A DNA stretch of 63,612 nucleotides, filler included. It is 10 parts of 10 records of this genome, joined end to end, with 100 filler letters (N's around TTAATTAATTAA, not from the genome) between each part and the next. Parts side by side here need not be neighbours in the genome. Positions count along the whole stretch, not along the records: positions 1 to 18,792 come from SRR7504441_12413; positions 18,893 to 22,683 come from SRR7504441_12459; positions 22,784 to 27,714 come from SRR7504441_12460; positions 27,815 to 31,834 come from SRR7504441_12465; positions 31,935 to 36,483 come from SRR7504441_12478; positions 36,584 to 40,064 come from SRR7504441_12482; positions 40,165 to 46,092 come from SRR7504441_12489; positions 46,193 to 53,376 come from SRR7504441_12497; 2 more parts are not named here. The stretch is one strand, 5' to 3'. Shown here one piece after another: positions 1,143 through 60,441 of this stretch. A program made the position numbers and the translations under genes. The notes under the pieces were generated by a model. It searched no databases. It saw only the letters and a program-made list of their open reading frames with translations, and had not been told where the DNA came from. Each line of letters begins with the position of its first letter. Positions within the stretch are counted from its first letter, which is position 1.

Positions 1143-2494
1143 CTATCCCCCGAATGGACTCCGCTTCACCCTTGCTAGTATCATGTCCTCTCTCTCCTTT
1201 CTTGTGAGACTGTTGGTGGGAGTCACCACCGAGGGAGCCAGCCCCACCTGCCCCAGGCTCATCCCCACCTCAGTCCGGCACACCTCGCTGTCGATTTGCT
1301 TTCGTTTGAGCGCTTCCACGAGCGTTTGCAGTTCGAATACCTCATCCGACATGTCCGAGAGCTCGGCCTTGCAGCTGTCGAGCTCTTGCACCACATCCTC
1401 GAACTGGGAGAGCCGGTTGTTGACCTTGTGCCGCTCGTCCTCGGCCGCGTACAGCTTGGCCTGCAGCTGGTCGATCGCTTTCTGCTTGTCTTTGAGCTCA
1501 TCGCTTTGCCTGCCAAGCTGCCGCTGGGCCTCCTCCAGGTTGCTGCTTGTGATCCTGCCGACCATCCGGCCGCCGGCCAGTCGCCCGCGCACCGCAGCGC
1601 CACCTCTAGCTCGCCCGAGTCCTCCGGGGCCCGCTCGTGCGAGACTGGCTGGGTGCTGCCGAGTACCTGCCGCCCGATCGCTGGCCCAGCCCAATGCGGC
1701 GCCTGCTGGCTGTCATTGAACTTGTCCTGCAGCTGCTGGTACTCGGTCTCCTTGTCCTGGTACGCATTAGAGAGCACCCGCTGCTGCCGACGGAATCTGC
1801 ACACCCCGGAGCTCGGGATGGCAGCCCCGCCACCAGCCGCAGGCATGCTCTAACTGACCGCGAGAGCGAGGTCCGAAGCCGCTCGCAGTCAGCAGCCGAG
1901 GCCTCCTTCTCTGCTAGTGCGGCCTCGGCCGCCTGCGACGCCCGATCCGCCAACACGCGCAAGCGATCGATCTGCCAATCGGCAAAAGCTGGCTTGCGGC
2001 ACGGCCGGGGTTGGGTCGCCTCGCCGGCGTCAGGCGCGCTTGCCGCGCTGCCTTCCAGCTCGCGCACCCGGGCCATCAGCTTAGCGTTGGTGGCCAGCAC
2101 TTTGGCGGTCTCGTCCGAAGCACTCGAGCCGAGCCCGCTCACCTGGCCCCGCTCCACCGGCGGCCCGTAGGCCGGGCGCCTCGGCCAGTTGTGTTTCAAG
2201 CTGCACCACCGCGGACCCCTGCCGGCGGATCGAGGCCGAGTAGATGGAGATGAAGGCGTAGCTGCCACCCGGCCGTCGGGCGAGCCCAGCGGGGCCGCAC
2301 ATTGTAGTGAGCAAGAAGGTGCCCATCGCGCTGCTCCCGAAGCTGAGAACAGGGAAGAGCAGCGCTAGTAGACCGCCTGCGGCCAGCCACCAGCGCGGCC
2401 GGGTCGCGGGCCAGATCGGGCGGTACTCGAGCAACCAGCAGCCGTCCAGCACCAGCCACGCGATCCACAGCGATGAGAGCAGGCTGGAGACCAT
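1143..2494 (-). CDS. Multi-exon hypothetical protein with N-terminal membrane segments and long coiled coil
   Basis: ATG at 2494 (MVSSLLSSLW); coiled-coil ORF pieces in different frames joined by ~37-nt introns, e.g. GC-AG intron 2143-2179 gives QLAE|VSGLG. Confidence 0.6.
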
Positions 2495-2589
2495 TGCCCA
2501 AATGAATTTTGTAAATCCGGAGGGAAAATCCAGACGGGTTGCCACTTGCCAGAGCCACAGTGGGGCCCCGTCATACAGCTGTATAGAGG

Positions 2590-5017
2590 ATGGCCTCGGG
2601 CCCGGCCTCGCCGCAGCTGATCCCCACGGAGAGCCAAGATGCCTTGCCACCGTTCGGCTCCCCAGCGGAGCCGTCAGCGCAGGCTCCGGCGCCGCCTGTG
2701 GGGGCTAAGCGCCCTCGAGTATCGCCGCAGCAGTCTGCACTCTGCGGGGTCATCACCATCCCACCCAACGGCGCCCTTCAGGCCCCAAAGCGGAGCGACC
2801 CGGCGCAAAAGCAGGCCGCAGGGCGGCAGCCAGGCCTGCTGAGCCGAAGTGGCCAGGCCCGGTGGCTGCCGGCGCGGACCGCCGCGGAGAAGCTGTTCAA
2901 CTTCGTCGGGCTGCAGGGGGAAGTTGGCTCCCGGCAGGCCAAGTACGATGGGAGGCTGATCCTGTGCTGCTCGCGGGCTTGCAGCAGGGTGACGCGCGGC
3001 CAGGTGGGCGTACTCGGTGCACGGGGACGCCTGGCTCCGGCAGCACGGGCTGGTGCGGGCATCCCGGCAGGCGGCCGAGGAGGGCAAACGGAGCGACCCC
3101 AAGGTACGGCGCAGGCCCGGGCGAGATCACGCGGGCTAGATGGCATCGATGCCCAAGCTGATGAGCGAGAAATGCCCATTGAAAAAGCTATTGACGGATG
3201 ATGTGGCAAGGGACGCTTTCGATGCTGCAATGCTAACAGCACACCGTGCAGAGGCATTGCCAGCTGGTGCTGTTGGCTTGACAGGGTGCTCAGCTGGGAG
3301 ATCCATGTGCGGAGCTGCGGCTGGCCGAGCCCCCATCCACCGAAGATGCCAAAGAATCTAAGCTGCCGGTTGCGCACATCACGGTAATTAAATCAAAAGG
3401 ACCTGGCAATGCGTCAAACGGTGCCCTGGGAATGTCATGCCTTCAGCGGATGTTTACACAAGGAGCCCTCGCTCATCCGACGCAGGTTCGGTGTTATGCC
3501 TTGGACTGTTGAGTTAGATTGTGGCAGGGGCTGAACCTGGCCGACCTAGCCAATGCTGTAGCCTCCTGGTCTGGGCTATCGCCGCGCTTGCCCTTGCGCC
3601 AGTCTGGGTGTCTGCCAACGACTCTGATGTCACAGCTCATAGGCGAGACAGCACGCAGCCCAGTGGCGCGTTAGCTTGATGCAGGTACGAGCCAGCATAT
3701 GGTACTTGTGGTAATAGATGGAGTCTCAAACTCTATGCTCTCCACTCATCTTCCTCCAAACAGCTTTCTGAACAGGAACAACATACCTGGTGATCCAGCA
3801 CTCGCTCACCTCATCTTGACCGCGAGCAGGTCTTATGCGTTCTGTGTTCCCCTCGTCAGCTAGAACCTGTCTCGAGGTATTGCTTTCAGGTGCCATCAGG
3901 ACCTATGCTTGGCTAACGTTGCTTGGTAGGCTACTGGCCCGCCCCAGAGCGATGTGCGCAACAGCTGTATACATCATATGGGCTCGCTGGAGTAGTGCAG
4001 TGCGCCTTGCGCTGAGGCCAGCTCCTGCTCAGAATGGGTCACAGGCACCCACTTGTGGACTTCAATGCGTTCCTGCCCGGAACGAATAATGATCTAAGCC
4101 ATTATTGGGTTGGCAAACCCCATTGCTTCTACAGCTCGCTGCATGAGATGGTACAAGGCGTGATGACTTGGATTCACCAAGTGCACTTTTCGGCCAACAC
4201 TTTTAACCTTCCACAAGGCGAACAAGGACTTCGGGGCGCATTGGGTTACGTGCATGTCACAACTGTAGCAGATGCATGCCAAACTCATGGTTGTAATAAT
4301 GTCCGTACCCGAGAGGCTTTGTTTGCGGTGAGTAGAGAGCTCTTAAAATTAGGGTGGGTCACTCATGGATTGCAGCTCGATCAAAGGCTGGAAAGCTTGT
4401 GTCGACAGCTTGACGAGGTGCCTGGAGTGAACTTAGTGGTGACAGCATCCGGAGGTCATATAGGTGACCTGCCTATTAGCCCCGAGTCTAGAGGCAGTGA
4501 TGAATACACCCCTAGTCTGTTTGGTCAGTTGTGTGATGGTGTGAATAGATGTGTCTGGTGTTTGTCTGCGCAAAGCTACCACACCAGCCAAAGCAGCAAC
4601 AAAACCTGTAGCTACCACAGATAGCAAAACAGCTCACTTGATGCAATTAATCAGTGGTTTCCAATACGCGGAGCCAGGTGCACATGCGAACACAGTAATC
4701 CTGATCTCTGCGCAGGTTGTGGTGGAGTAATGTTGTTTCATGTGAAATCTGAGAACCGCATGAGGTTTGAATTCGAGTTTCGAAATACATTCGGCGACTC
4801 ATTTGCCCTACTAGACAAGCGTGAAGCGGCTGAGCTGAGTCTATACCAGGGAAGACTGCATCTGGATTGGGACTATATGGCTGTGAGTATTGGCGGAGAA
4901 GCATTTGTAGTTGACGAGCGGTTAGACGGGATGCAAATCGCATGTGGTGGTTCACTCACGTGGGAGGAGATGAGTATACCCTTGCTCGTGTTGAAAAGTA
5001 AATTTCACTTTGGCTAG
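2590..5017 (+). CDS. Intron-rich hypothetical protein; exon structure only partly resolved
   Basis: Successive ORF pieces (2590, 3140, 4034, 4730) separated by ~36-42-nt GT/GC-AG segments; TAG at 5017 followed by AT-rich DNA. Confidence 0.45.
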
Positions 5018-5255: not shown

Positions 5256-8200
5256 TCATATTGGACCGTAGTAGTCTTCGTCACTTGATTGTTGATTTAG
5301 TGGCTGGAAGTTGACATTGTTCCTCTTTCTCTGTGGTGAGTTGGGCGGGCTTGAGTTATCGGCAGTCTCCAAGCTGCATTCATTACTGAGGATCCAGTCA
5401 ACAGCAGCCTGAGGATCCTTCTCTTGCCGCGCTGCCATCACACACCATTCCCGCTTATCGTCATAGCTGATTCTTTGATCCTGCTGTTTCAGCAAATTGT
5501 GGATTTCATCAACGCGCGACTCAAACTCTGGGCCGCTGTCTATGTCCTCATCTTCACCAATCAGTTTTGCTAGTGCTCTCTCCGCGTCCACAGTCGAGCG
5601 AGTCCGCTGCAGCTTTGCAGCTTGCGTGTACGTATAGCCTGTTGCAGTGGTCACCTTTGAGTCCTGCATCAATTCATTCATGTATTTGCGCAGCGACACC
5701 AAAAATTCCTTGTTGCTTTCAACCCACATCTTGACTGCTCCTATGACTGAAAGTTCCACTAATACCTGGACCAGTTTCTTGATCCTATTGTGTGTCGAGT
5801 GCGCAGAGTAATTGGAATAATTCGTATATGACGCGCCAGTGTGGATAGTGGGGTTTCCACGGCCACCGATTCCCGTCTGGCCTTGGTGGCATGCTATTTC
5901 GACCTCGTTCCGCAACGCAGACAGAGTCGTTTGCACTCGGATGTTCTGCTGAGGCGAGCCATCGTTTGGCAGCAGCAGAGTCATCAACACGTCTAGTGTC
6001 TTCTTTGTGTCTTCACCCGGTGCCCTTGCCAACCACTGCACTATTTGGAGTGTAGACTCCTCACTGCTGTGGCTGACAGCAAGCACAAATGTTTTGATTG
6101 ATTCGAGTGGCCCAGCGGATAGCAGCAACACGCGCACATCGTTATTGTACTCCAGCGCTTCCCTCGACAGCTGTGGCAGGCCCTCCAGCGGCTCAACCAT
6201 TGAGCACAAGCATTTGATAAATATCTCCTGGTTGAAATTGATAGCATAGTTCCGAGAGCCCCATCCACGCTCTGCAACTACACGAAGATCGTGCACTGGG
6301 GTCTTGGGCCCAAGTAGGTAATGCAGCATTTGTGCAATGATGTCATGGCTTCGTGCATACTCCCGGACCTCTGCATTTGATGTCAATAAAGCCAGTAACT
6401 GCCCGTATTGTGCTGCATTGGATGTCTTCACATCAGGCATCAATGAGAGGAGCTGGAGGAACATCTCGAGCATCGCACTGCCCTTGGCGTCGCATGCCTT
6501 GAACAACATTGCTCCCACCACCTTGCGAGCATAGTCGTGTGGGCAATCAAGCAGCAGCCGCCTGAGCTCTCTATTCTGAAGTTCAAGCAGCTGTTGCCGT
6601 GCTGATGGATAGGTAGACATCCCCTTATTCAAACAACTGCGCCACTGGTTCATCAGCTCCTCGACTGCCTCCTCTTCAGGAGTTTTCTTCTCCTCCTCCT
6701 TGTCGAGTTTGACCCCAGTCACCACTTGGCCTACCACAGGCCCTGTCGAGCCATAATTGGAGACTGATGTCCATTTCCGGTATCCGATCCGGATCACAGT
6801 GGTAAAGAAAAACTGCAGTGCCAGGCCGAGAATCCCCTCCAGCGTGCTGGCCTCCACTGCAGCATCAGGGGTAGTGCTGTTGGCTATGCGCAGTAAATCG
6901 TGGAGCAGTTTAATGTGGGCCAGGTTGCACACATGCGATATGCGCATCTCCTGCGCATTTTGCTCCATCACTGCATCGTACGCCTCTGACATTGATGCTG
7001 GCATTGATGCAGTGCTGATGGATTTGAGCTGCTCAAGCGAGTCGCCTGCACTCCCAAGCGACTCTGGAGAGCTCGCCTGGTGACTGTCGCTTGCATCATT
7101 GGCAGTTGACTCAGATGTGAGGTCATAGAACAGCACATAGGCCCCCGGCTTTGGCATCGACCACGTCTTGGGCTCACCAAACTGGTTGGTCCAGGTGGAC
7201 GTCTTGGTGCCACCAAAAGTATCATCTGCTAGAGAGTTCTCCACGTCCCATGCGGTCACATGCGAATCGTCAAACTTGAACCAGCGATTTGTCTCTCTGT
7301 CTCTAATATACGAGTAGTAATGCCCGCCGCCAGAGCTGCCCTCGTGAATGACCACTCCACTTAGCGTGTATAGGCATGTGCCTTCTTCTATCATGTACGG
7401 CCCAATGTCTATGTTTCGCGGGAACTCAAAATGGTCTGCACACCGTGTGTACTCTAGAGTCTCAAGCGAAAAGACGTAGCGCTTGAGATTGAAGACCAAT
7501 GTCTTAGGCGCCTGCTTGATTCTAGGCGTTTTTGTGCTCTCCACGCTGTCCTCAGACCCATCCTCAAAGGTCCATTTGAGCTCAAACCCATCCTCTGGTT
7601 GGAAGTTGAGAGCAAGCGACTCTTGGAGCGAGCTTTGCCCCTCTACCTCAATATTGATTGCCAGCGCAACATCTTCTGGGCCTGGTCGTGTAAGAGTCTT
7701 ACCATCCCTGGTAATGGACCACTCTGAGGTTGTCACAATCCTCAGCTGCCGCTCAAACAGTTTTGCCTGGACAGAGCCTTTGAGTGCCTCATCCATTTGA
7801 TCACAAAGCTTTGTAAAGAAGTCGTTGGCGTCATTCTGCTCTCTCACAGGATGGTCGAGCCGGATCACACCTTCACAGGCGTCTACAAATTTGACAGGAT
7901 CGAAGAAAGTCCCCACCCCAAACTGAAGCTGCGCAAAGGTGCGCTGCAGCTCGGACAGCAACCTCACCTGGCCCAGCCTTTCCATTTTCTGTTCGCCGGC
8001 CTTTTGAAGCTTCTTGACTTCCTCCTCGCTGACTGATGCCGCTGACTTGGCTTGGTCGAACTCCTCCTTGGCTGCAGCAATCTCCTTCTCAAGTGGAGAG
8101 TAGTCCGAGCTGGTGGAAAGCACACCCACACGCACCTCCGGCAGCAGGTACAGCTGCTGCAAAATCGAGTTCTGGTAGCAGCATAGCCCCTGGTTCCGCA

Positions 8201-11200
8201 GACCCAAGTAGCCTCCCTTGGCAGGCCGCCTAGCTGCCTCTGTGTTTGGATCCAGATACCAGTAGTCCCAGCCACCGGTGCCCACGCTTGGCAGCATCTC
8301 GTGCTGGATCTGTAGCCATTCCAACAACAAAGTCATGTATTTGGGGCACTGCTTGACAATCTCGAGCAGTGCGCTCCCAGCAGCCTCTCGGGCCTTCATG
8401 GAGGAGCACGTCGCGCTCTGGGCATGGTTGTCGCCATACAGGCACTGTGTCCAAAGCATACTGATTGCAAATGCTGCAAGATCGCTGTCTGCTCCTGCAC
8501 CAGCCTGGACCGATTCTGGCACCTCTCTGTGCATCTGGTTTGGCCAGCGGGAAATCACATCAGCAAACAGCTGCAGCACTTTGGTTAAGATTGTTTCATC
8601 TTCGTTCTCCTCCGGGAATGTTTTGACAAACACAATCAGCACCTCAAGTAACAGTGGGGCTTGCTCGCCAGCTTCCTGGTGCTCCAGGAGGAGAGTCAAC
8701 AAGTCAAGCGCTTCCAAGATAGTTAACGAGCAAGGTCCAGCTGTCTGTAGTGCCTCAACCACAAAGCCGACAACCTGGCAGGTTTTGGCTGGCAGACGTT
8801 CGCATATTTTGAACAAAGTCTCCTGAGTGGCTTTCCTAACCAGCTGAGTCTGGTTCTCTACAAGTAGCCTGGCCAATAACTGCGGCTCAGATAAGATCAT
8901 CTCAGCGTACTCTTCAGAGGTCGACATGATTGGTACAATTGTGTGGAGCGAATTTATTGCGACACTTTCGTCATGGCTTGTGAAGCTTACCCTAAGCACC
9001 TGCAGCAATCCCTGCAGCAGCTCTGTGTAGTCGACCTGCTTGACCACAGCTACTGATGCCGATGCAAACGGCGAGTGTGCAATCGCACCAGTAGAGATCG
9101 AGTCACCAGACTCCGCCATCTCAGTTGTCCGCAGGGCTCCGGTGATGCAGAAGCGCATTACTTGGAGGACAGCTGCCAGGGCGTACTGGACCCTGGGAGG
9201 CATCGGGTTGGCAAAGTGCTGCACAAGATCAATGAAGAAAGAGTTCATCATAAGAAATCCTCCATGTGTGATGAACCCGCGCCGCCACTGCCGTGACCAC
9301 TCTGTGCGCTGTGGGTCCGCTGGTTGCAAAAAAGCACTGACTATCTGTGCGATGTATGCAGCTTTGAATGCCTTAGCAGTGGGTTCTTCTGTGACACCAA
9401 GCAAGCTTTCCCAGTCGACGTCCTCAGGTACCTCCAGGGCATTCAATTCTTCTGAAGACGACGGAAGGGATTGGATCAGCTGCCAGACCCTCATTGACAA
9501 GCGGCGCTCGCCAGCAGCCACAGATGCAGCACAAAGCTCGAAGAGCGTATCAAAGTAGGCTCGCATATCCATGATAGCTTCAGCCACTGACTGTGCTTGC
9601 TGCTGGTGCACCTTCGTATGGGGCAATACTGTTGTGAAGACCTTGAAACCATCGCCTGTGGCACTGAGCCCAGCTTGCGCAAGTGTAGCCCCCTTGAGCA
9701 TTGCAGCTGACTGCTCGTTGCAGTTGCGGTCGCCGTACTTCATATACATGTTGGTCTTCTCCTGGCTCATTCCAAGCTCGGCTGCGATATGCTGCTTGAA
9801 GCCGGTCATGGTGGCATTGGTGTGAGTTACAATCCTGAAGCTGTCTGACTCCCAATGTGGCTTTGCCCCCACCCCAGTGTTGCCCACATCCACCAGCCGT
9901 TTTGCCTCCACTTCGATCTCAAGTGGAGTACCAAAGTTGGATGATCTATGTGATGGGCATTGTTGCTCATGTTCTGTATGATGTAAACATTCTTCAATCA
10001 GCGCAAGCGCGTTGTCAGCAATCTCGACAGACCATGGCATGAATTTGGCATCAATTAATTGCACAGGGTCAAAGCTCTCTCGCTCATCATAGGTGATCTG
10101 CATGCTCTCCATCTGCTGAGTGATATCATCCTCAGCCTGCTTATCCCCAGTAGGCTCCTCATTGTTGAGGGTACCTCTTAAGGCCAGCGAGCAGAAGCTC
10201 AGGCATCGGAACACAGCCATAAGAAGCTGAGCATGCGTGCCATTTGACGCTCGTGTGTAGTCGAAATAAATGCTTCGCAGCAGCTGGCGGGCGGATTCAC
10301 CAGTCTTCTCTTTCCCAGCCAGAGCTGCCTTCCAGAGGGCAGGCATTCCATCCAATGACAGTGTGGTGACAGCCATGCTATCCAGCGCCATACTGCTGTA
10401 TGAGGGATTCTGCAGTCCATTGATTCGCACAAACAGCTGTTTGAACGCATCAAAGCTCTGGATACCAAGCTGCTCAAAGTGAGCATGTTCAGAGATCAAC
10501 AAGAATGCATGGCGAAGAAGCTGGGAGTCCAACAAAGTGACAAGAGAGGCCAGCCACTTGAGAAATGCCTCAAAATACTCTGGCACAGTGGTTGATTCAA
10601 CAAATATTCGCAGCAGGGTTTCGAGCTCCTGCATTCTGAAAGGTGTGGCGTACTTGCATAGCCGAATCAGTGCAGTGAGCAGAGTGAGCCTAGGTTGGAG
10701 CTGCACTAAAGCTTCCTCCTTGGAGTTACCAGGCGCAAGCAACTCTTGGAACGAGCCAATGATAGTCCCCATAAAGTCTACCTCGTTTGAATTGAGCATG
10801 TTATAGGTTTGCTCTAGTTCGTCTGTCACTATGACACTCTGGATCTTCATATTGTAACACATGTACAAGATCTTTTTCATCAGCCCATATGCTGCACCAG
10901 CATCAGCATCCCCATGCACAATCCGCTCCTGGCACTGTCGCACATACTGAATCCTCAGAGGTTCCAATGGCTCTGTCTCTGTTACTGCCGGTAAGTCCTG
11001 CTCATCGTCGTCTAGGACATAATCCTCGTCCTCTGCGAGGGCTTCATTGGCCTTGGCCTCAGCAGCCTGCTTGCGAGTGTCTTCTTCGGTTCTGATCACC
11101 TCAGCGAACAGCTCCTGCAGCTGTTCGAGCTGCTCTGGACTCTCAGAGTGTGGCATAAGTCCAAGCAAGCAGTCAAGCAGCGCAACTGCCGCTACATGCG

Positions 11201-13440
11201 ATGAAAGCATTTGACAGAGCTCGTTCTTGGAGAGCAGCATCTCTATCACTTCGGCGTTGGGCAGCAGCTCTGCGATCACATGCAACAGGTGTGCCTGCCC
11301 TGCAGCATCCAGAGAGACGAGCACGTCCAACAGCCGTGCGTGTGCTTCTGCCTTCTCAGACCTGTGCAACCAGGATCAGCATCGAGGCAGGTTGAGGTGG
11401 CTGACCTGTGGGCTTTGGCAATGCGGCCAACCATTGAGTCGGCGTGCTTCTGGGTGAGAAGATTGTGGTTGGACATGTACTTGATCAAGTCTTTGCCGGA
11501 CGAGCCAAGCAACTGCATGTGGAAGTTCTTGCCAAACAAATCCTCAAACACCTCCGATTCAGCCAGCCACACGTGAAACTCCGGGGCAGCCAGGGCACAC
11601 GGGTCCTTGATTTTGTGAGAGCAGGTGAGCGGGAATCCGATCGTGTCGGTGCTTTCAGCTAGATCGTCCTTCCACCGGTATTTAATCTCAAACTGGAGCT
11701 GCTCCTCCCAGTATCCAGTCACTGTGGACGAGTAGGTGGACGGTGAGTAGTCCTTCCAGGTCCGCTTGTTGTCCAACTGCTGCACCACCTCGACCACCTC
11801 GAACGATCGGCCCTGACAAGCAAGTCAGCCCCAGCACGCACGGCGGATATCACCTGGCAATGAAACGTCTGGCCCACCCCAGGACCTTGCACGCTCCGCT
11901 TGGCATGAACCTTCTGGTTAGCCACGGCTAGAATCGTCCGAAGCCCGAAGGCATGCTTTGGGAGCGAGTCGGTCTGCCAGCACTGGAGAGAGCAGTGCAG
12001 CTCACACAGGTACTGTGGCTGGTAGTTTTTGTCCATCAAATCATTTAGCTCCTCAAAGACCTGCGTGAAGACATCTTCGCAATGCACTTCCTCCGAATGC
12101 GTATTCCAGGCCTTGGCATCTTTCTCATCCGTCCGGTTGAGCGCTGCCACGATGCGGCTGCAGATGGGCTCAGTCATGTCACCGGAGCCTTGGTCCAAGT
12201 ATGGCTGCAGGTCCTTGAGTCCAACCAGAATCTGTAGCGCCATCGACATCTGGTCCCCCCTCTCCCGTATGGCCGCGACCTCCCTCTCCACCGCCAGCCG
12301 GGCCTCACGATCTGACTTGGGGCAAGCATCCAGCCGTGCGTAGCTCTCACTAAGCGCTTGCTGCAGAGAATCAATCGTGTCCAGTTGTTTCTCGAAATAC
12401 TGCTGGGCCCGGGTCTGAATCTGGGCCTGCAGGGACTGCATCTTGCTATCGGCCTGCTCGGCCTGCTCGCGCCATTGCGCCAGATATTCCTCAGTCTCGG
12501 TCTTGCCCTGCAGCAGCGTGGTCAGGTTGAGAGCGTCTGCGTGGACAGCCTCGTATTGATTCTTGAGCACGTGCATGTCGCAGCTGAACTCGAGCGCGAT
12601 CCAGCCCTCAAGCTCGGTCGGCTGGTCCGCGAGCAGGCCTCTCACCTTGCGGAGCGTGCCGAGCTCATAAACCTGCTGGCAGATCGAATCAAAGTGCTCC
12701 GGGCAGCCCTTCAGGTGCTCGCTTGCCCGGTGCCCGCTGGCCGAGTAGCTGTAACTCGACTTGTACACCGTCTTGCCGGCGTACCAGACGTTCTCCTTGT
12801 TCAGAATGTCCTGCAGGATCGGCAGGTAACTCATCATCTTCTGGTTAAGTGCCTCGTCCACGATCCCGGTCGCCTCAGTCAGCGCCCGCAGGCAATTGCT
12901 CTTCTCCGAGTCCATCTCATGCGACAGTCGGTGCACCCGCCCGGCCCATTCACTGGGGGTTCGGTTCTTTATCACGTTCACTCCCCATTCCAATCGGCTC
13001 TCCGAGTGGCGCAACGGCGACTCGTCCAGGAAGTCCCAGGCGTCCTCCACAGTCGGCTGCTCCTCGCCAGGCCGAAGGTAGGCATCGATCGCGTCCTGAT
13101 CTCGACAAACTACCGCCCTCGCCATGGACAGCCCATCGGCAAAACTCTGGAAGGAGGGCCCTCCATCGGTGGGCGGGTTGCGCACAAACTCGAACGCCGA
13201 GCACTTGCGGGAGGGCTCTGGGAGCGAGAAGGACTGCTGCAGGATTGTATCAACCGCGTCGTCTTTGTTCACCGACTGGGCCAGGGCCTGCCGGGCCTCC
13301 TCCTCGGTGCACTGCTGGCCGCGGGCCTTGACTGCAAAGACCACCTCCTCCACCCTCTCCTGCTCCCTCAGCTCCCAACTGTTAGTCCTGACCGACTCAA
13401 CCCCGTCTTCATCCTCCTCGCTCAACTGCTGGACGGGCAT
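5256..13440 (-). CDS. Very large ubiquitin-specific protease (peptidase C19, USP9/24/34-like), about 2700 aa
   Basis: Cys box GLRNQGLCCYQNSILQQL, QNDANDF, His box GGGHYYSYIR and WFKFDD; three ORFs joined by a 41-nt intron (FHCQ|GRSF) and a 44-nt intron at 11362-11405 (AHR|SEKA); UBA-like segments near both termini. Confidence 0.9.
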
Positions 13441-14354: not shown

Positions 14355-14401
14355 GATGCGAGGTGAGGCGGCTGCGCGCTGCTGCAACGGCACTGCAAGA
14401 G

Positions 14402-15925
14402 ATGCCCGATGAGGCCAAGCCCCGGCTGGTGGTGCGGGAGAGCGGTCCGGCGGCGCTGCGGGCCAACATCGGGGCGTGTGTCGGGCTGGCGGAGGTGCTC
14501 TCTGGCACGCTCGGGCCGCACGGGTCGGACAAGCTGCTCCGGGACGACAACGGGGACACGCTGGTCACCAACGACGGGGCGACCATCCTGGAGGCCCTCC
14601 GGATAGAGCACCCGGCCGGCCGGCTGATGACCCAGCTGGCCCTGGCCCAGGACCGGACCGTGGGCGACGGGACCACCAGCGTGGTGCTCATCGCGGCCGA
14701 GCTGCTCCGCGGGGCCGAAAAGTACCTCCGGAGCGGCGGGGCGCCCATCCAGCTCGCGCGCGGGCTGACCCGGGCCTGCGCGCTGGCGGTCGGCTGGGTG
14801 GACCAGCTGGCGGTGCCCGTCGGGTCGTTGGCTCAGGTGGCGGCCACCAGCTGTCGCTCAAAGGTGGTGGACACCGCCGCCGACCGGTTCGCCGAGCTGG
14901 TGGCGATGGCCGTGGAGACGCTGCCGGCCACAGCGGGGCCGGCCGACGTGGCAGTCGTTAAGCGGCTGGGCGGCACTCTGGCACAGTCGGAGCTGGTGCC
15001 GGCCGGGGTGCTCATAGAGCGCCCGGCCTCGCCTGGAGGCCCAGAGAAGCTCGAGGACGCGCGCGTGCTAGTATGCCATGCCGGGGCTGGCTCGGGCGCG
15101 GCGGTGTGGCAGCGAGTGCCACTGGCCGACCGGCCGCCCGAGCCCAACTTGGCTGAGCTACTCGAGCGGCTGGGCGCGACGGTGGTGGTTTGTCACGGCG
15201 GGCTCGGGTCAGCCGTTCCGGGTCTGGGCAAGGCCGGCGTGCTTTGCGTGGAGCATGCCGGGTGGGATGGCTGCCAGCTGGCGGCCCAGGCCACTGGGGC
15301 CAGCATGGTCCGCGACCTGGCCGCAGCGGACCGGTCGAGTCTTGGGTGGGCCGGGCAGGTGCGCGCAGTAGCAGTCGCCGGAGAGCGGATGGTCGAGTTG
15401 AGCCGGTGCAAAGCGCCCAGCCGCTGCTCGCTGGTGCTCCGGGCGCCCACCACCGACCTGCTGCACGAGTGTGGCCGAGCGGTGTTTGACGCTCTTAGCG
15501 TGGTGTGCGCTGCCAGACAGGACCGGACTGTGGTGCCAGCGGCCGGTGCAATCGAACTGGAACTGTCGGCCCGGCTGCGGCGGGAGGCGGTCGGGGTGCA
15601 CACGGCTGACCGGCACGGGCTGTGTATGCTCGCGGACGCGCTGGAGATGATACCAAGCGTTGTGGCTAGAAACGCTGGGCTGGATGCCCCTACGTTGGTG
15701 GCGCAAGCCGCGGCGCTGCACAGTTGTGGCGAGGCGAGCGAGGCAATCGGCGTGGACGTGCTGGAGGCGAGGGTGCGCGATGTGCTGCAGGAGGAGCCTG
15801 TGGTGGTGGCTCCGGCTCGATTGACCAAGTCTGTGCTCAAGCTGGCTTGCAGCGTAGCCAAACAGATCCTCAACATAGACGAGAACGTGCTGATGCCGCC
15901 CCGTGAAAACTTTGTGATCAAATAA
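14402..15925 (+). CDS. Divergent group II chaperonin, closest to CCT-beta (CCT2)
   Basis: LGPHGSDK, TNDGATIL, VGDGTTSVV, VEHAGWDG and CSLVLRAPT motifs; no intron needed. Confidence 0.85.
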   Translation: MPDEAKPRLVVRESGPAALRANIGACVGLAEVLSGTLGPHGSDKLLRDDNGDTLVTNDGATILEALRIEHPAGRLMTQLALAQDRTVGDGTTSVVLIAAELLRGAEKYLRSGGAPIQLARGLTRACALAVGWVDQLAVPVGSLAQVAATSCRSKVVDTAADRFAELVAMAVETLPATAGPADVAVVKRLGGTLAQSELVPAGVLIERPASPGGPEKLEDARVLVCHAGAGSGAAVWQRVPLADRPPEPNLAELLERLGATVVVCHGGLGSAVPGLGKAGVLCVEHAGWDGCQLAAQATGASMVRDLAAADRSSLGWAGQVRAVAVAGERMVELSRCKAPSRCSLVLRAPTTDLLHECGRAVFDALSVVCAARQDRTVVPAAGAIELELSARLRREAVGVHTADRHGLCMLADALEMIPSVVARNAGLDAPTLVAQAAALHSCGEASEAIGVDVLEARVRDVLQEEPVVVAPARLTKSVLKLACSVAKQILNIDENVLMPPRENFVIK

Positions 15926-16099
15926 ATGAAGCGTCCACTATAATCAGCCTTTAAGCGCGGAGCTGATGACTCGTAACTGCTTAACTACACGATTGTACGG
16001 TACTTGTACCGTAAGTACTTTAGGCACACAAGTGACACAGCTACTCATAAACCGTTATTAACTTGGGTTGCGCTTAATAGTTGGCTGCTTTGTTCCCCG

Positions 16100-17003
16100 C
16101 TAGATAAAAGTAATAAAACCCGAACAGCAAGACTCCGATCGTCATCCAGATCTTGCCTGCGCCCGAGTCAGCCTCGCAGAGCTGGCAGCCCACCATTATG
16201 CTCGGCGGCCAACTGCTTCCATTTCGCTAGCACCATCCTCATCTGCACACAGCAGTCAGCCTCGCTAGCCGAGCAACCCCACCGTGATTGGAGGCTTTCT
16301 GACATCCGAAGGCTTGAGATTCCGCGCACCATACACCGAGCCCTTGAGCTCATCCAGGGTGCACAGTTTGGCCTGTCTGTAGCACAGCCACCGGCGAGTT
16401 CGGGTATTGATCACGTTGCTCTCAAAATTGGTCCCTTGCTGTATCTGCGTCTTGAGCTCCTCCTCGTACTCCTGTCCTCGCCCGGTCCTGGCCGCCACCG
16501 CCCAGCCCACCTCCACTAGGCCGCTGCAAAACTGCTGCAGCGCCCGACCGACTCCGTCGTACTCCTCTTTCTGCCCACCGCTCCGGCCCAGCTCCAGCCC
16601 GCGCGGGCGCCTTTGAGGAGCCGAGCGTGTCCTCCAGCACGAATTTGCCCGCCGGCCGGATCCCGTTATCGCAGGCCTGCGCCCGGTCGGGGCCGGCTGG
16701 CCGGGGCGGCACCCGCTCGAGCACGTCTAAGGCCATCGTCTCACTCCCAATATACTTGAGCTTGCGCTTCTTGGCGTTGGACTGCATCCGGTGCCCGACT
16801 GGGATCGTCTCATCCCTTCCCCCCTCGGCTGCCCTCCGGTACCTGTCGCCCGCCCCCTGAGCCAGCTCGGCCCAGCCAGCGCACTCGTGCACGATCGCCC
16901 CGGCCACCTCCTTGCAGGCAGAGCACTTGAGCGCCTCGGGCAGCGGTTGGCTGGCCGCCAGGTATGCCTGCGCAAGGAAGAGCAGCAGCCTCCCAGCCAA
17001 CAT
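16100..17003 (-). CDS. Canopy/saposin-like secretory protein with C-terminal transmembrane helix
   Basis: Signal peptide, CSAC, GHRM...KYIGSE...LE..C, FCSGLVEEYEEE, WLC...KLC; six inferred introns; ends KIWMTIGVLLFGFYYFI*. Confidence 0.75.
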
Positions 17004-17310: not shown

Positions 17311-17313
17311 GCC

Positions 17314-18792: not shown

Positions 18793-18892
18793 NNNNNNNN
18801 NNNNNNNNNNNNNNNNNNNNNNNNNNNNNNNNNNNNTTAATTAATTAANNNNNNNNNNNNNNNNNNNNNNNNNNNNNNNNNNNNNNNNNNNN
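18793..18892. other. Artificial contig spacer; also at 22684-22783, 27715-27814, 31835-31934, 36484-36583, 40065-40164, 46093-46192, 53377-53476, 56544-56643
   Basis: Identical 100-nt N-run/TTAATTAATTAA/N-run with stops in all six frames. Confidence 0.99.
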
Positions 18893-32252: not shown

Positions 32253-32406
32253 CCCGCTCTGACGGCAGCCGATCAACGCAGCTCCGGAGCGGGGACACAC
32301 CAGCGTGCCGGAGCTGCACAGCGCACCGGGTCCCCGTCCAAGGCCCAGGTTGCGGATTCCAGTGTGATTGATTTCAGGCTGTCTCGAGCGCGTGCTCCCG
32401 GCCAGC

Positions 32407-39726: not shown

Positions 39727-40918
39727 GGATAACCGCCGATCCGTTGCCGATGGACCCACAGCAGCAGGGGCTGCCCCAGCGGCAGCGGCGGCGGAAGCGC
39801 GATCACCCGGACGGCGGATCCGGCCCGAGCCGGGCGATGGAGGCCGCCATAGAGCGCAACGTGCTGGATCGGGCCGAGGCGCCTCCCTGGGCCAGTCCAG
39901 GCCAGCGGGGGGCAGGGCGGGTTCCGCGGGTTCCGTGGAGTGGTGCCCGCCACGCTGGAGGAGGCGGTGGCGCTGGAGCAGCCGCAGGCAGTCGAGGGAG
40001 CGGCGGCGGAGCAGCGGCCTGCGCACTACGAGTGTGCGGGGGCTGGCAGGGGGGGGGGGGGGGANNNNNNNNNNNNNNNNNNNNNNNNNNNNNNNNNNNN
40101 NNNNNNNNTTAATTAATTAANNNNNNNNNNNNNNNNNNNNNNNNNNNNNNNNNNNNNNNNNNNNACGAATCATCTCAACTTGCTTCTTTTTCCTCGACCT
40201 CTGTCCAGGCTTCCGATATTAAGCACGGTTGATAGATTACCAAGGTGCGTTGTGGTTGAGGCGGCGCTGCCGGCCCGGCCGCTCGAAGCCCTGGCGAGCT
40301 GTACGAGATTCCCGGTAAATGGACGAGAAAGTATTGATATGCTTCTACGAGTACTCGTAGTTGTACATGTATTTGACTAAACTTATTACTGTGTTGTGTT
40401 CATTTGCGTACCTGAGTCGAGATCACTAGGGCGCGGCCTTGGCCTGCTCGGACAGTTCCAGTTGCGCCGCCCGCCCGTAGGCGTCGCCGGCCTTAATCGC
40501 CATCTGGGCCTCGTCCGTCAAGGCTTTGTTTTGCTTGTCGATTATTTGCTTGGCTTGATTGACCGCCTTGGTGCCGGACTTGAGCTCCCGCTGGGCCTTT
40601 ACCTTTGCACTATCGCCCACGCTGTGCTCCCTGGACGGCAATGCCGGGGCGTGGTCCTGTCCCCGCGCTCGGCCGGCGCGCCCAACCTCGGCTTACCAGC
40701 CCCCCTGGACTCAGCGCGGCGCTTTCTGCGGGCTCCGCTGACCGGGCAGATCAGCCAGGGCACGGCACCCGGACCCACCCGATCGCACTGGCTCCCCGCT
40801 CGCCCCGACCGCGCATGCCGCCACCAGCGCCACCCAGCACCACGCCCTGCTGCTGCCGTGATTGGGCATCTCGTGGTTTTTTGCGGTTGGGTGATCGAAG
40901 TGGGAAATTCTGATACGA

Positions 40919-44360: not shown

Positions 44361-45726
44361 ATGAGAATCAGTCCGGCAGCTCTGCTCGGCCAAAATGCTC
44401 CGGTGCTGCGGCTCGGGGCTACGCACCCCTGCGCTGCGGTCGCTGGCAGCGAGCAGGATGGGCGGGAGCCGGCTGCACCAGCCGGGACCCCGCCAGCAGC
44501 CGGCCTTCGTGCCAGACGCCTCCGCCGCCGGTCGGACCCCGAGCCAGGGCAGGTGGCTCACTGGCGTGCAGGCAACCAATTTCTGCAGAGGTTCCCGCCG
44601 GCTGCGGTGCCCTACCTGCAGCTGATGCGGCTCGAGCGACCGATCGGGGTCTGGCTCCTGGCCTGGCCCGGGTGTGTCGCCCTCGCCCTCGGGGTGCCAG
44701 CGGGGGCAGCTTCTGGAGCATAGGGCTGGCGGCCCCAGCGGGCCACCTGCCCGACTTGGGGCTGATCGGGCTGTTCGGGGCCGGGGCGGTGCTGATGCGC
44801 GGGGCGGGCTGCACCGTGAACGACCTGTGGGACCGCGATCTCGACCGTAAAGTCGAGCGGACCAGATCGCGCCCTATCGCCGCAGGGACTGTCTCAGTGC
44901 CGCAGGCAGCCGGCGCGGCCGGGGTTGCCGGGCGAGCGGGGGTAGGCGGTGGGGTTCCTGGGGCTGCAGCTGACCGGTGGATTGGCCGTGCTGACGCAGC
45001 TGAACCAGCCGACGATTGTGCTCGGAGCTGCATCGCTTGTGCTGGTTAGTCTGGGCTCTTGCTCGCTTGGTAGGCTCAGCTGGGGGTCAGGTTGGGACTT
45101 ATCCGTTGATGAAACGCGTCACCTGGTGGCCGCAAGCCTTTCTGGGGTTCACTTTCAACTGGGGGGCGCTGCTTGGTTGGTCTGCAGTGCATGGGCAAGT
45201 GGATTGGTCTGTGTGTGGCCCGCTGTACCTGGGCGGAGTGGCCTGGACGATTGTATACGATACAATCTACGCCCACATGGTCAGTCCCGTGCTGACAGGC
45301 CAGTCTAAGATAATCGGTCGGCAGGATAAGCGTGATGACGCCCGCACCGGAATTTACTCCACTGCACGCCGTCTGGGTGCCAGTACCAAGCCTGTACTGG
45401 CCGGCTTTGGGGCGGCGGCAATAGCAGGATTCGGGGCGTCGGGGCTGGCTGCGGGTGGGCCGTTGGCAATTGCGCGGTGGCTCAGTGCATCGGGTGCCAG
45501 GACTTGAGTGGCCGTTCTACGTAGCCACTGGTGCTGGAGCGGCGCAGCTCGGTTGGCAGATTGTGACGGTAGACTTGTCCAAGCCAGGGTAATCCGGCTT
45601 GTAGTCGTGCTTCTGACATGTTGCTGTGTCTTAAAGGGATTGCTTGGCCAAGTTCAAATCAAACAGTGTGTTTGGCGCATTGATCTTTGGTGGCATTGTT
45701 TTAGGGCGCTTGTCAGCAGCGGTTTA
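44361..45726 (+). CDS. COQ2: 4-hydroxybenzoate polyprenyltransferase
   Basis: [53 protein letters not shown]; five introns of 38-48 nt. Confidence 0.95.
44906..44945 (+). other. GC-AG spliceosomal intron (40 nt) in COQ2
   Basis: CAG|GCAGCC...GGGTAG|GCG; removal restores TVSVPQ|AVGFL and fixes a frame change. Confidence 0.85.
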
Positions 45727-46468: not shown

Positions 46469-47989
46469 TCACGCCCTCTTGTACTCGTACGTGCGCTCAT
46501 GCGTGCGCTGCGCCACCTTCGTGGTCCAAACATTAACGCGCGCGTAGACTTCCGTGGCTACCCTGAAGGCCATGCCGCGGTGCACGAAGGCGGCCGGGGC
46601 CACAGCCGTGCCCACAAGGATGCAAATCCACAGCTTGGAGCTCGCATGCAGGCAATACTTTAGGAGCGCGTTGAGGCCCGGGTTGACCCAGCCGGTAAAA
46701 ATGGAAAAATTGATTTGGTAACTGACGTGGTGTAGGGAGTGATGCCGCGCGTCCATCAGTATCCCGGCTTGTTGGAGGGCCGTGATGGCCGAGGGCACCT
46801 CCGTCGGCTTCGTGTGCGACCATCTGTGCGACCACATCATGAATGAGCTAAGGGCAGCAAAGGCGACCAAGAAGGTGCGCAGCAAGCGGCAGGTCTTTGC
46901 ACAGGCGCCGGTCGCCGCCTTGTTCGCGGGCACCAGCCCTGGGATCAGCACCAGGGCCACGCCCACATGATGCTCCCTCAGGAACTTCCACAGGGGCCCC
47001 CGTGTCACACCGCCTGGATCGTGGTGGTGGTGCTGGAAGCCGATCGCGGCGCTGCCGATGATGGGCCACGTGTTGAAGAGCGGGTTATCAAGGCAGATGT
47101 GCAGCAGGCCCGACATGAGGTCCGTGAAGACGACCGCGGCGAGGAAGAAACCAAGAGCTTTGAGGGCCCGGCCGAGTATGCTGCCCTCCTCATGGCGGCG
47201 AGGCGAACCACCACCGCCCCAACCGTAGCGCCGCTCGATGCGATTCAGCACGGCAAAGGCGACAATTTCGAGGAGAATCCCGATGGTCGCCACGTCCTGC
47301 CCGCCGTGGAGCAGCACGGAGGATCCCACGCTTCCCAAATTCGAGAACAGCGAGGACGATGACGCCTTTTGGTCCAGCTCTTGCTGTATCCGCCGCAAGT
47401 CCTTGGCCGTGCCTTGCGCGACCGGGACAGAATAATAAAAGTCCCAGAATCGCTCCGAGTCAGCATTTGGCAATTTGGCGTCCACAAAGGCTGCGGCGCC
47501 GCTACTGTTTACGAGAGATTCGGCCATGAATTCGGCCGTGCAGTTGGGCATCGGGAGGCCAGTCAGCGCGACGACGTCGGGATACTTTGAGCCAGGACCC
47601 ACAGGGCTGCCCTTAAACAAGCCGATCCCGGGATGCGAGATGCGCCAGGTCCTCCTCGAGGGCATAGCAACCATCTCCCCCACTGGCTCCGACCACTCGC
47701 AGCATGGGTCGCCCAACTCGTGCCCGTTGGTCTCTCCGTCGCCGTCGCTGTCCTGCTCGCACAGCCACTGGGTCCACCTATACCCGGCCCTCTTAAAGTC
47801 TCTGCCGAACCTGTTGACTGAGCCCCCGCCGCTCAGGTGCCAGTGCCCGATGCCTGCACTGCCGGGAACATTCAGCGCGTTGGGGACCATTCCGCGGTAG
47901 TGGCTGTGGCCGCGGCAACAAGGCGAGTTGATCTGGAGCGCCAGGACAGTTAGGAGAGACAGGTAGAGCGCAGGCTGCGAAGATGCCAT
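46469..47989 (-). CDS. Temptin-like extracellular domain fused to TMEM189/PEDS1/CarF/FAD4-type desaturase
   Basis: Signal peptide; VPN...GIGH...GGG..NRFG.DF...WT..LCEQDSDGDGETNGHELGDPCCEW...SHPG; then DLMSGLLHICLDN, FQHHHHDP, HRWSH, HHSLHH. Confidence 0.8.
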   Translation of the reverse strand: MASSQPALYLSLLTVLALQINSPCCRGHSHYRGMVPNALNVPGSAGIGHWHLSGGGSVNRFGRDFKRAGYRWTQWLCEQDSDGDGETNGHELGDPCCEWSEPVGEMVAMPSRRTWRISHPGIGLFKGSPVGPGSKYPDVVALTGLPMPNCTAEFMAESLVNSSGAAAFVDAKLPNADSERFWDFYYSVPVAQGTAKDLRRIQQELDQKASSSSLFSNLGSVGSSVLLHGGQDVATIGILLEIVAFAVLNRIERRYGWGGGGSPRRHEEGSILGRALKALGFFLAAVVFTDLMSGLLHICLDNPLFNTWPIIGSAAIGFQHHHHDPGGVTRGPLWKFLREHHVGVALVLIPGLVPANKAATGACAKTCRLLRTFLVAFAALSSFMMWSHRWSHTKPTEVPSAITALQQAGILMDARHHSLHHVSYQINFSIFTGWVNPGLNALLKYCLHASSKLWICILVGTAVAPAAFVHRGMAFRVATEVYARVNVWTTKVAQRTHERTYEYKRA

Positions 47990-54899: not shown

Positions 54900-54933
54900 G
54901 GATTATTTATAACGGCAACACAGCCGCGCCGAG
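54900..54933. promoter_or_regulatory. 34-nt bidirectional spacer with AT-rich run and TAACGG
   Basis: TTATTTATAACGG between the divergent thiolase-fold and MFS start codons. Confidence 0.6.
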
Positions 54934-56288
54934 ATGTTGAAGCCGCCGACGCAAACCGCGGGCTGCATCGCTGCCCAGCTGTTCCTGAACTGTCTGTCGA
55001 TCGCCACGATGCTCCAAGCCCGGCCGGCGCTGGTGCTGGGGTACGTTCAGCACACGGCTCCGCGGGCCAAGGACCAAGCGTCCAGGGCGGCCTCAATATT
55101 AGCAAGCTTGGTGTCGGCGGCCAGCCTGATCGAGTTCGTGAGTAACCCACTGGTGGGCTGGCTCAGCGACAGATTCGGCCGAAAGCCCTTCCTTCTGCTC
55201 GCTCCGCTGCTCAGCTGCGCTGGCAAACTAGCCGTGGTGGCGGCCCCCCGCCGGCTATGGGTAGTGTGTGCGGACAAGCTAGCCACAAGCGTCAGTCTCA
55301 CCGGCTGCAGCATCGCTACCTCCGCGGCGATAGACGACATGTTTACCGGCCAGCCCCGCACCGAGCTTAGCACGCAGCAGCGAGTGCGCCAGGGGGCTCA
55401 GGTGGGAGTGCTAGCCGGATTGGCTTTCGTGATTGGCCCGATTCTCACCAGCCTGCTGATCCGGCGGCGCGGGCCTGTTGCCTGCTACGCGCTCTGTGCG
55501 GCCATCTCAGGTGTGCAGCTGTTGATTGTCTCGACGCGGTTTAGTGAGACGCTCGACCAACAGACAACTAAGCCCGCTCCACTCCGTACACTCAGCCCGC
55601 TAGGATTCCAACGGCTGTTCACTAGTGGGCCCCGGCTGCGGCAGCTGACTAGCTGCAACCTGCTCCAGAGCTTTTGCGAGCCCAAGGCACCAGCACTGCG
55701 GCCATCGGGGGCTGACTGGGGCGACAGGCCTGGTCAGACATGCAGCAAATCTACATGAGTGTGGATCTAGGGCTGTCGCCCGCCGGACTGGGCAAGTTCA
55801 ACGCCGCGCTAGGAACGGCCAGCATCTTCGCCAAGTACTTTTCCGGCAAAATGGCCGTCAAGCTCGGGGCAGCAGCTCACACCACACTGTCCAATCTAGT
55901 GTCTGCACTGGCGTTTGGGTGCTGGGGTGCTGGCCTGTGGCGCGTGGCTTTGGCGCTCGCTCCGTTCCACCTGGACAGATCCGCTGCAGTGAGTGTGCAG
56001 CGGTCAGAGGCGGCAGTGGCTGCCGGGCTTCAGGTCAGCTCGAGCTGGCTGCTGGGGGCTGACAGGTTGGGGCAGCATGGGGAGCAGCATGCAATGTACG
56101 CCAACTTGCGAGCACTGAACATGGCAGTGGCCCCTTATTTGATTAGCAAAGCCTACGCTATCGCCAAGCGAGGTAAAGGGATCCCTCCGGGTCTCGGTTT
56201 CTTGATAGTAGCAGCATTTGCTATAGCTGCAGAGCTTCAGCATCAATGCGCTCTACGCGATAATAGTTGCAAGACAAAGACAAAATGA
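54934..56288 (+). CDS. TetA/MFSD14-like MFS transporter
   Basis: GWLSDRFGRKP, GLAFVIGP, ETL; GC-AG intron 55687-55727 joins EPK|AWSDMQ. Confidence 0.82.
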
Positions 56289-58057: not shown

Positions 58058-58637
58058 ATGGACGGACCATCCAAGGGCGGGCTCGAGACTGTGCAGCTGA
58101 CTGGCGAATCCACGCTTCGCATCGAGGCCAGCTTGCGCGCCGCAGCGAGTGGCACTGATCGGCTAGGGCAGGTCCAGGCAGCGAGTAGTCTGTCCCACAC
58201 CCTAGAGGATCAACGAGACCGGATGTTGGCACGCAAGCAAAAGCTGTTCCTCGAAGCCGACAAAGCGAGCAGCGAATTCCTGGCCCAGGCCATCGCGCCA
58301 AACAGCAGCGTGTTTACAAGGTGGCGGCGCAGGTGGAGAACTTCAGGCGCGAGACTTCACAGCGTGCACAGCAGGTGTGCACCTATTGGCCAAAATTCAC
58401 ACCCCGTGCTAGGTCAGAGTGTCTTGGGAGGCCTTGGAGAAGAACCTCAAAGAGTCAGAGCTCCGTTTGAGGGAGAAAGAGAGGAAGCTCCAGATGGATA
58501 AAAAGATGCACGAGCTGATGGCATCTACCCTTTCAGCTGTTTTGAAGGACGACAATTCAAACACAGGGACACGGCGCCCTCACACATCCGATTGCAGAAT
58601 ACGCCCCACAGTCTTGGAAGGATCTAAGAAACGCTAG
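58058..58637 (+). CDS. Hypothetical coiled-coil protein
   Basis: ORF pieces 57998-58501 and 58419-58637 separated by probable short introns. Confidence 0.45.
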
Positions 58638-58922
58638 CGAGCCTGTTCACGAGGACGCAAGAGAATCGAGTCTTATCACACATGTTACGTATCACATCTC
58701 GTCCGGCGCACTCTCTACTATGTAGTATACGATGAAGCCGGTACATTTTCCCTCCCCTCGTGCTTAAGTAATAATAATATACTCGTAAGTGATCGATTGA
58801 CGACCGGTACTTGCGCTGTGCGGTATTTTGAGTTCAATTCGAGCCTCATCAGCCAGCTCCAATCTATATCTGGAATTGGATTCATGACCGATGTCAATTC
58901 GAACTAAAACTTCTTTTCCCGA

Positions 58923-60441
58923 TCATGCACACAATTCGGGGACGGCATCTTGTGAGAGAGTGAAGTAATCGCCTGCTTCTTGCTGCACTTCAGACCCTGG
59001 AATCACACAGCATTCAATTGGCGGTGATGTAATGTGGGGCAGTGTGCTGCCTGCACAGCTTTTCGGCTCAACACAAGCTGGGCTGGCCTCTGTGACGCCG
59101 TCCTCACTCATAAGGAAAACCTGGAACCAGACTAGGAACAAATGTCAACCCAGACAGGGGCACCGTCATTGGACCACCGCTTGATTTCACAAATAGCTCA
59201 TACTTAGGGGGAGCATAATGCTCCGACGGATCGGCCAGATCCGGAACCTGACCAACAGCTCAGCCGACCTTGAAAGACCTGTGGCCTGACCTCGGGCACA
59301 TTGAGAGTCGTCCCAATAGGCGCCCGAATTGCTACAAAAAAAGTATCATCATCACTCTCCACCTCCTGCAGGTCCTGCCGCAGCGAAACGACACACGAAT
59401 CAAGAATATCTCGTGAGTAATTCGCACCTGTCGGGTGACAAACGCCAGTTGGCAGTTCTTCTTCTCTTGCGACAACTGTCTCAGCTGTGCCTGCATCTGC
59501 TGCATCTCTGCATCAAGCGCTCCAGCCTCGCTGCACAGCATTCAATCACATGACCACCAAGAAAGAACGCCAACCTTTCTAACTGTTTTAATTCGCTGGA
59601 TGCTGTCTCCACTTCGCGGCGTAGCACCTCTCGGTCAGCCCCACAGCCCTGCCGGCAGCATTGCATCGCACACAGGCAGCTGGATTGCCTTCCACTGGAT
59701 GTGGTTCTTGGCAGTCTTCTGTATCAGCCCAATCCCCTCAAGCACATTGGTGATATCGTATATCCGGCGTTTCTGCACGCCGAGCTGCTCCGCCGCCTGC
59801 ATGCGGTCACAGCATTGCGCGATCGGGGGCGTCACTCCATTGAGGTCGAGCACGCCACCCGGCGAGTCCTGAATCAGCTGCACGAAGCTGCAGCCAGTGA
59901 GCCCAGCACTGGGACCCGCTCACACCGCTTGGTGAGCAGTCCAAGCGAATTATCGAACCGGTTGGTCGCGCCGTCGAACCGCAGCTGCCAGGGGCAAAGA
60001 TTGACCGCACTGTGATGGAGGGCATGCCTGGTCGGGTGGATCCGGCGACTGGTCTAGAGTGAGCGGCGGGGCCACGCTGGGCGGGAGTGCCGACGTTTCA
60101 CCCAGCTCCTCCGGCTGCCGACCGCTTGAGGCATGCGGGTGGAGGGCCAACACACCGGCGCGTAGGCACTATCCTCGAGCTTTGGGCGCGGACAGGGGCT
60201 CGGCGAGCTCAGACCCAAACAGCTCGCCGAACGCTTGCACGGGGATGTGCTCATTACCCGCGCTGCGGTGCCCTCCCGGGACGCTGTACCACAAGCCCGC
60301 GTTGCCGCTCTTCAGGTGAGGACCACAACCCGAATAAAAATCAGCGTGTTGTCTCTGGGATGGACAGTAGGACAGCGCGGAGCGGCGGTGGGGACCGTGG
60401 GTTCCGATGAGCGCACGCCGCGGAAGGTCGGAGCTGTTCAT
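58923..60441 (-). CDS. E2F: E2F-family transcription factor, multi-exon
   Basis: [49 protein letters not shown]; coiled coil; C-terminal DYFTL. Confidence 0.92.
59649..59688 (-). other. GC-AG spliceosomal intron (40 nt) in E2F
   Basis: AAG|GCAATC...CGGCAG|GGC; restores the conserved IQWK|G. Confidence 0.85.

Follow-up and report, generated by a model that had tools for sequence, protein, structure and literature searches.

GC-AG introns appear to be a real feature of the genes in the window analysed here, a stretch of DNA of 63,612 nucleotides (nt; filler included) from a GC-rich single-celled eukaryote, made up of ten pieces of 3–19 kilobases (kb) each, joined by nine N linkers. In the curated intron set, 14 of the 83 introns have a GC donor (17%, confidence interval 10–26%); assuming that all 23 GT calls dropped during curation are real, the share becomes 14 of 106 (13%). 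As read from DNA and protein sequence, which form the evidence throughout, the share of GC donors lies between one in eight and one in six, which greatly exceeds 1–2%. Most probably, these are ordinary introns of the major spliceosome (U2-type), about 40 nt long, in which the second intron position (+2) has drifted from T to C at donors preceded by AG, under GC pressure.

The window is densely packed with eukaryotic genes, as judged by Pfam matches, and has a GC content of 47–69% in 2-kb bins. The linker located at 18793–18892 and the eight others like it each consist of a 12-base spacer flanked on both sides by 44 N; neighbours across a linker may not be neighbours in the genome. An Rfam scan of the window gave no matches, so no small nuclear RNA (snRNA) was found within it. 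For the homologue tests, a spliced protein-to-DNA aligner of our own was used, in which any donor is permitted and an AG end is the sole requirement (donor-blind alignment). Genes were also modelled on the two strands, with explicit intron length, the training set being intron-free reading frames and GT introns only. In the donor-blind version of this model, GC, GA and GG donors have an equal prior and there is no exon-side term; the AG-preference version adds to it a preference for an exonic AG, the same being offered to GC, GA and GG.

The donor-blind model called 79 GT, 13 GC, four GA and one GG donor. AG precedes ten of the 13 GC donors and none of the five GA and GG donors, against a background of 5% of all GC dinucleotides (in an earlier run of this model, eight of ten GC calls were preceded by AG). 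The AG-preference model called 85 GT, 14 GC, two GA and one GG donor. From these 102 calls, 27 were removed on inspection (23 GT, one GC, two GA and one GG), because they fell within an uninterrupted domain match, belonged to a gene without support or were replaced; eight were added (seven GT and one GC), giving the 83 curated introns. Among frame-shifting introns, the GC share is 11 of 58. The profile of distances from AG-XY to the acceptors, where XY is the dinucleotide considered, contains 16 cases against 5.0 expected for GC, none against 4.5 for GA and four against 3.5 for GG, a comparison that is partly circular, given that curated acceptors were used. A sequence-only reading of the window had put the GC share at roughly one in six of 40 to 50 introns; this share holds, while the number of introns is about 80 to 100 and that of GC candidates about 14, instead of the nine listed at the time.

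These nine sites (seven introns and two extra candidates, the latter here placed on the + strand) are given below. All are 37–42 nt long, start with GC and end with AG; AAG, CAG or GAG precedes each of them, and excising each connects two open frames, which largely confirms what that reading had observed. The donor-blind model recovered six of the nine and the AG-preference model eight. Five have protein support, which is strong for the first three, good for the fourth and moderate for the fifth. The sixth and seventh are candidates predicted by the gene models. Support is weakest for the last two, putative introns called by the AG-preference model and not by the donor-blind model.

38544–38583, minus strand: GC-AG intron of 40 nt in phase 0, preceded by AAG; intron 1 of the SV2/SVOP-like transporter gene; donor-blind alignment and both models.
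37516–37555, minus strand: GC-AG intron of 40 nt in phase 0, preceded by AAG; intron 7 of the SV2/SVOP-like transporter gene; donor-blind alignment.
44906–44945, plus strand: GC-AG intron of 40 nt in phase 0, preceded by CAG and ending in TAG; COQ2 (UbiA family) gene.
59649–59688, minus strand: GC-AG intron of 40 nt in phase 0, preceded by AAG; E2F gene, where the DNA-binding domain ends; missed by both models and added by hand.
16571–16610, minus strand: GC-AG intron, 40 nt, after AAG; gene at 16074–17003; homologues and both models.
55687–55727, plus strand: GC-AG candidate of 41 nt, preceded by AAG; gene for an MFS transporter at 54934–56062; both models.
2143–2179, minus strand: GC-AG candidate, 37 nt, after GAG; gene at 1143–2494; both models, no homologue.
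2815–2856, plus strand: GC-AG candidate, 42 nt (a multiple of three), after CAG; its removal takes out an in-frame stop; AG-preference model.
3254–3293, plus strand: GC-AG candidate, 40 nt, after GAG; AG-preference model.

The best-resolved test case is the gene that contains the first two sites:

36828–38610, minus strand: SV2/SVOP-like MFS gene of 487 codons, with eight introns of 39–41 nt (six GT and two GC).

Donor-blind alignment of this gene to the homologous protein P0121 returns all eight introns, including both listed GC introns, and all junctions are free of gaps. When the alignment is constrained to GT donors, the score drops by 47, from 1798 to 1751, and the gap-free match is broken. 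The intron at 37516–37555 is obtained exactly with P0121 and with P0122 (the local alignment of the latter stops short of 38544), while of two distant animal proteins, P0123 gives the same donor and P0124 does not. Two intronless relatives on metagenome contigs, L001 and L002, share 73% and 67% amino-acid identity with the transporter gene, respectively. Their alignments are gap-free for five codons on either side of all eight junctions, and the AG before both GC junctions is kept in the two relatives.

In the COQ2 gene, the intron at 44906–44945 was picked donor-blind by 41 of the 45 homologues aligned (45 of 102 long enough, out of 120 listed); three took a GC located 3 nt downstream and none the GT at 44897. 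The E2F exon upstream of 59649–59688 stops at position 64 of 65 of the Pfam E2F_TDP domain. E2F4 continues with a glycine, which is provided by the next exon in the window, and the conserved W-K-G fits the intron as placed. For 16571–16610, one of six homologues, P0253, gives an exact, gap-free match; P0252 and P0255 place a 40-nt intron a few bases off and the other three are uninformative. The three homologue-aligned genes taken together contain 20 introns, four of them GC, the genes having been picked for holding GC candidates. Among the modelled candidates, the one at 55687–55727 is flanked on either side by MFS_1 matches in different frames (Pfam), and there is no in-frame GT 25–70 nt from its acceptor. 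The candidate at 2143–2179 has a GT rival of 43 nt ending in AAG (2100–2142), turned down by both models. In an earlier donor-blind run, a GT intron at 3267–3300 was chosen over 3254–3293.

In general, the introns are short and uniform. Their length is 35–48 nt in 80 of the 83, with a median of 40 for GC and GT introns alike. Interiors have a GC content of about 74% in all (0.747 for GC introns and 0.741 for GT introns), and 12 of 13 modelled GC introns are in phase 0. The acceptor profile is also alike in both classes: a G-rich run is followed by CAG, with 54% G at −10 to −4 and no pyrimidine tract. By statistics on the sequence, an A resembling a branch point is present at −11 to −17 in both classes, with a peak at −11 to −15. 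A strict branch motif is found in 29 introns against 3.5 in shuffled ones (five of 14 GC introns and 24 of 67 GT introns; 67 GT introns entered the branch-motif counts and 69 the donor-position counts). Where the motif is clear (45 of 80 introns), the two arms, from donor to branch and from branch to end, vary independently of each other (rho −0.05, standard deviations 2.0 and 1.8 nt), as expected if each arm, and not the total length, is constrained. The motif ATCCT at +3 to +7, used for U12-type introns in PMC3033335, is present in none of the 83. The three longest introns (53–63 nt; 59375–59427, 61689–61749 and 62110–62172) are located in stretches of lower GC content and are richer in T.

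The two classes differ at the donor. AG precedes all 14 curated GC donors and 20 of the 69 GT donors; the figure of 14 is partly built in, the unbiased one being ten of 13. G at +5 is present in three of 14 GC donors, a rate not above the 35% background, and in 43 of 69 GT donors (p=0.007). The sole intronic enrichment of GC donors is an A at +3 (six of 14, against three of 69 GT donors, p=0.0005). GT donors have a G at −1 in 59 of 69 cases and mostly G at +3; the commonest is GTGC, and at +4 C (45%) outnumbers A (22%). When matches to the consensus are counted, GC donors score 2.29 of 3 on the exonic side and 0.93 of 4 on the intronic side, against 1.54 and 1.04 for GT donors. The intronic side of the GC donors is not closer to the consensus, as it would be in compensated GC donors of the mammalian type. 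Because the GC donors lack the G at +5, it is the exonic AG that carries the GC donor site, which supports the reliance on exonic positions −2 and −1 proposed from the sequence-only reading. Exonic purine content does not differ between GC and GT donors. Avoidance of out-of-frame GT near GC donors finds no support (two of 126 positions against 30 of 621, p=0.14).

How GC donors might be tolerated can be outlined as follows. The 3' end and the branch point would define the intron, and the donor-to-branch arm of 25–34 nt would leave few possible donor positions. Pairing of the exonic AG with U1, and then with loop 1 of U5, may be enough to tolerate the mismatch at +2. As the DNA drifts to high GC content, donors preceded by AG would accumulate C, to a lesser extent than neutrally, and no snRNA change would be required. 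The share of C at AG-preceded donors is 14 of 34 (41%), against 69% C among C and T inside introns (p=0.001). Because 41% is lower than the 69% predicted by intron composition, selection still favours T at +2. The third-position GC content of the transporter gene is 82%, and those of L001 and L002 are far lower, 61% and 48%, which suggests a recent rise in GC in the lineage of the window. High GC-AG shares are reported to go with high genome GC content (PMC3033335; 10.1101/2024.10.30.620910; PMC4028052).

Several observations weigh against this explanation. The introns are read from DNA and protein sequence, not from RNA junctions. The metagenome scan for relatives of the transporter gene gave the two intronless loci and no intron-bearing genomic copy, leaving the T-to-C direction unobserved. 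Pairing in register with standard U1, which may not be that of the host, amounts to 4–7 pairs for GC donors, with a mean of 5.3 against 6.3 for GT donors. Simple signals fall short of full specificity: of 212 unused AG-GC sites, 54 have a CAG 35–46 nt downstream and 15 of these also a branch-like motif, while six of the 14 used sites have both. Local GC content is 0.655 around GC donors and 0.606 around AG-GT donors, a marginal difference (p=0.052). Finally, Micromonas RCC299 is reported to have 64% GC and 2.7% GC-AG introns (PMC3033335), which makes GC content an imperfect predictor.

It is unlikely that intronic pairing with U1 and U6 is nearly absent from the choice of 5' site, with the branch point serving as a ruler of 25–34 nt and the exonic AG alone setting the cut, by way of a changed U1 small nuclear ribonucleoprotein, a U6 modification or Prp8. 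Were this true, the uniform 40-nt introns would be the simplest natural test system for the reason why GC donors are tolerated in some GC-rich protists, which PMC3033335 and PMC3167603 leave open. We likewise think it improbable that a changed spliceosome has moved donor choice onto pairing with the exon, be it through a U1 variant that pairs with C at +2, an altered ACAGAGA box or methylation of U6, or divergent U1 and U5 proteins; the sequence-only reading had pointed to an altered U1/U5/U6 balance. Donors in general do fit the textbook intronic consensus poorly, as seen at +4 of the GT donors, the GC donors have no compensating G at +5, and such changes are reported in tunicates with non-canonical introns (PMC13326754). 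However, a U1 matched to C at +2 would not limit GC to sites preceded by AG, and T is favoured even at these sites. GT donors retain the G at −1 and at +5, as standard U1 and U6 predict. The 5' end of U1 is described as standard in Aureococcus, with 39.6% GC-AG introns, and in Micromonas pusilla, with 22.2% (PMC3033335). Nor is such a change needed, AG-GU donors being described as a U5-loop-1 class of the ordinary spliceosome (PMC11732430).

That the GC introns are decayed introners, derived from transposons with a GC end and with the AG coming from target-site duplication, is very improbable. Some introner families are reported to have up to 50% GC 5' sites (10.1101/2022.06.06.494994), and the AG found on either side of the junction amounts, in formal terms, to a 2-nt duplication. 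Nevertheless, the 14 GC introns have no shared sequence (best-partner score 16.6, against 16.4 ± 0.8 when shuffled), and all introns together give 20.2 against 19.4 shuffled, with a best single score of 25; this comparison covers the 83 introns of one window and could overlook families scattered across the genome. Junction repeats mostly end at AG/G and are not longer than those at AG-GT introns, and there is no excess of folding (mean z −0.44 against −0.11, p=0.20). Least credible of all is that the cell has no GC donors, a nearby GT being used, the C being a sequencing error or C being edited to U in the RNA: homologue tests cover five of the 14 candidates, two are stop-free stretches of a multiple of three and GT rivals exist for 2143–2179 and 3254–3293, but none of the 14 GC introns has an in-frame GT 33–48 nt from its acceptor (the model's GC calls would tend to be confined to such places), forcing GT on the transporter gene has the cost in score and gap-free match given above, and sequencing errors would not prefer sites preceded by AG.

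Outside the nine listed sites, five further GC-AG candidates are predicted:

39879–39915, plus strand: 37 nt, after GAG; both models.
58127–58171, plus strand: 45 nt, after GAG; both models; stop-free and a multiple of three, so uncertain.
58289–58332, plus strand: 44 nt, after CAG; AG-preference model.
59985–60027, minus strand: 43 nt, after CAG; located in the 5' portion of the E2F gene; both models.
60849–60893, plus strand: 45 nt, after AAG; both models; stop-free and a multiple of three, so uncertain.

Donor-blind runs put the donor of 58289–58332 at a GC located 6 nt downstream, and no in-frame GT is present 25–70 nt from its acceptor. A GC call at 62140–62172, after CCT, was discarded, as a GT intron in the same frame exists (62110–62172).

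Some other genes in the window have unusual features. At 35092–36033 (minus strand), in an IFT121/WDR35-like gene, the start of a TPR match (Pfam positions 1–76 of 147) adjoins, in a different frame, the carboxy-terminal zinc-finger part, with repeated short words nearby; this has the appearance of an internal deletion or a mis-join. An apparently intron-free group II chaperonin is located at 14357–15925 (plus strand); its best matches are just 28–35% identical and it is a very divergent CCT-like paralogue. The intron-free frame of 832 codons at 32368–34866 (plus strand) contains a HAD hydrolase and an EcKL/choline-kinase-like domain (Pfam), preceded by an amino-terminal part that has no Pfam match and that we take to be nucleotidyltransferase-like in look. 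Another intron-free frame, at 46469–47989 (minus strand), combines a Temptin carboxy-terminal domain with a lipid desaturase domain (Pfam). The gene for a ubiquitin-specific protease at 5256–11518 (minus strand) has about 2,060 codons and one clear intron; its third-position GC content of 60% is below that of the intron-rich genes.

Both the phenomenon and shares of this size have been published before, in other GC-rich plankton. The sequence-only reading had set the window against a level of about 1% in model eukaryotes, a comparison that makes the window seem more surprising than it is, given the 14–60% found in several GC-rich protists. Among pelagophytes, Aureococcus anophagefferens strains are given about 14–17% GC-AG introns and Pelagomonas calceolata about 14%, against 0.32% in the low-GC Aureoumbra (10.1101/2024.10.30.620910). 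Aureococcus and Pelagomonas resemble the window in GC-AG share and in GC-rich DNA, and the authors credit the GC content of the genome; their introns average 103–177 nt, whereas those of the window are about 40 nt long. Aureococcus is also known for introners, of which the window introns show none. Next to the shares cited above for Aureococcus and Micromonas pusilla, PMC3033335 lists 7.7% for Chlorella, and for Emiliania huxleyi 56–61% GC donors are reported, nine of them confirmed by RT-PCR (PMC4028052). In Emiliania huxleyi and Micromonas pusilla, GC-rich plankton as well, GC donors are described as a major class and the AG acceptor as unchanged, as in the window, at a higher share. Emiliania huxleyi is further reported to have about 4% GA donors, whereas no AG-preceded GA donor was found in the window.

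Mammalian GC-AG introns have the same ends, exonic AG and U2-type nature as those described here. They make up about 1% of introns, and their donors are reported to be closer to the consensus than the average donor (PMC2490688, PMC3167603). The better match to U1 elsewhere in the mammalian donor is not shared by the intronic side in the window (G at +5 in three of 14), where the GC-AG share is about tenfold higher. A further parallel is the AG//GUNNN class read by U5 loop 1 (PMC11732430), which like the donors of the window combines a strong exonic match with free intronic positions; the class is described for GU donors, and we infer its stretch to C at +2. The papers cited still treat the reason for high GC-AG shares as unexplained. 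For annotation, gene prediction restricted to GT donors would mishandle about one in seven introns here. With the lineage of the window, the GC-rich protists in which GC donors are frequent gain a member whose introns are very short. The GC donors of the window keep the exonic AG, not the intronic consensus.

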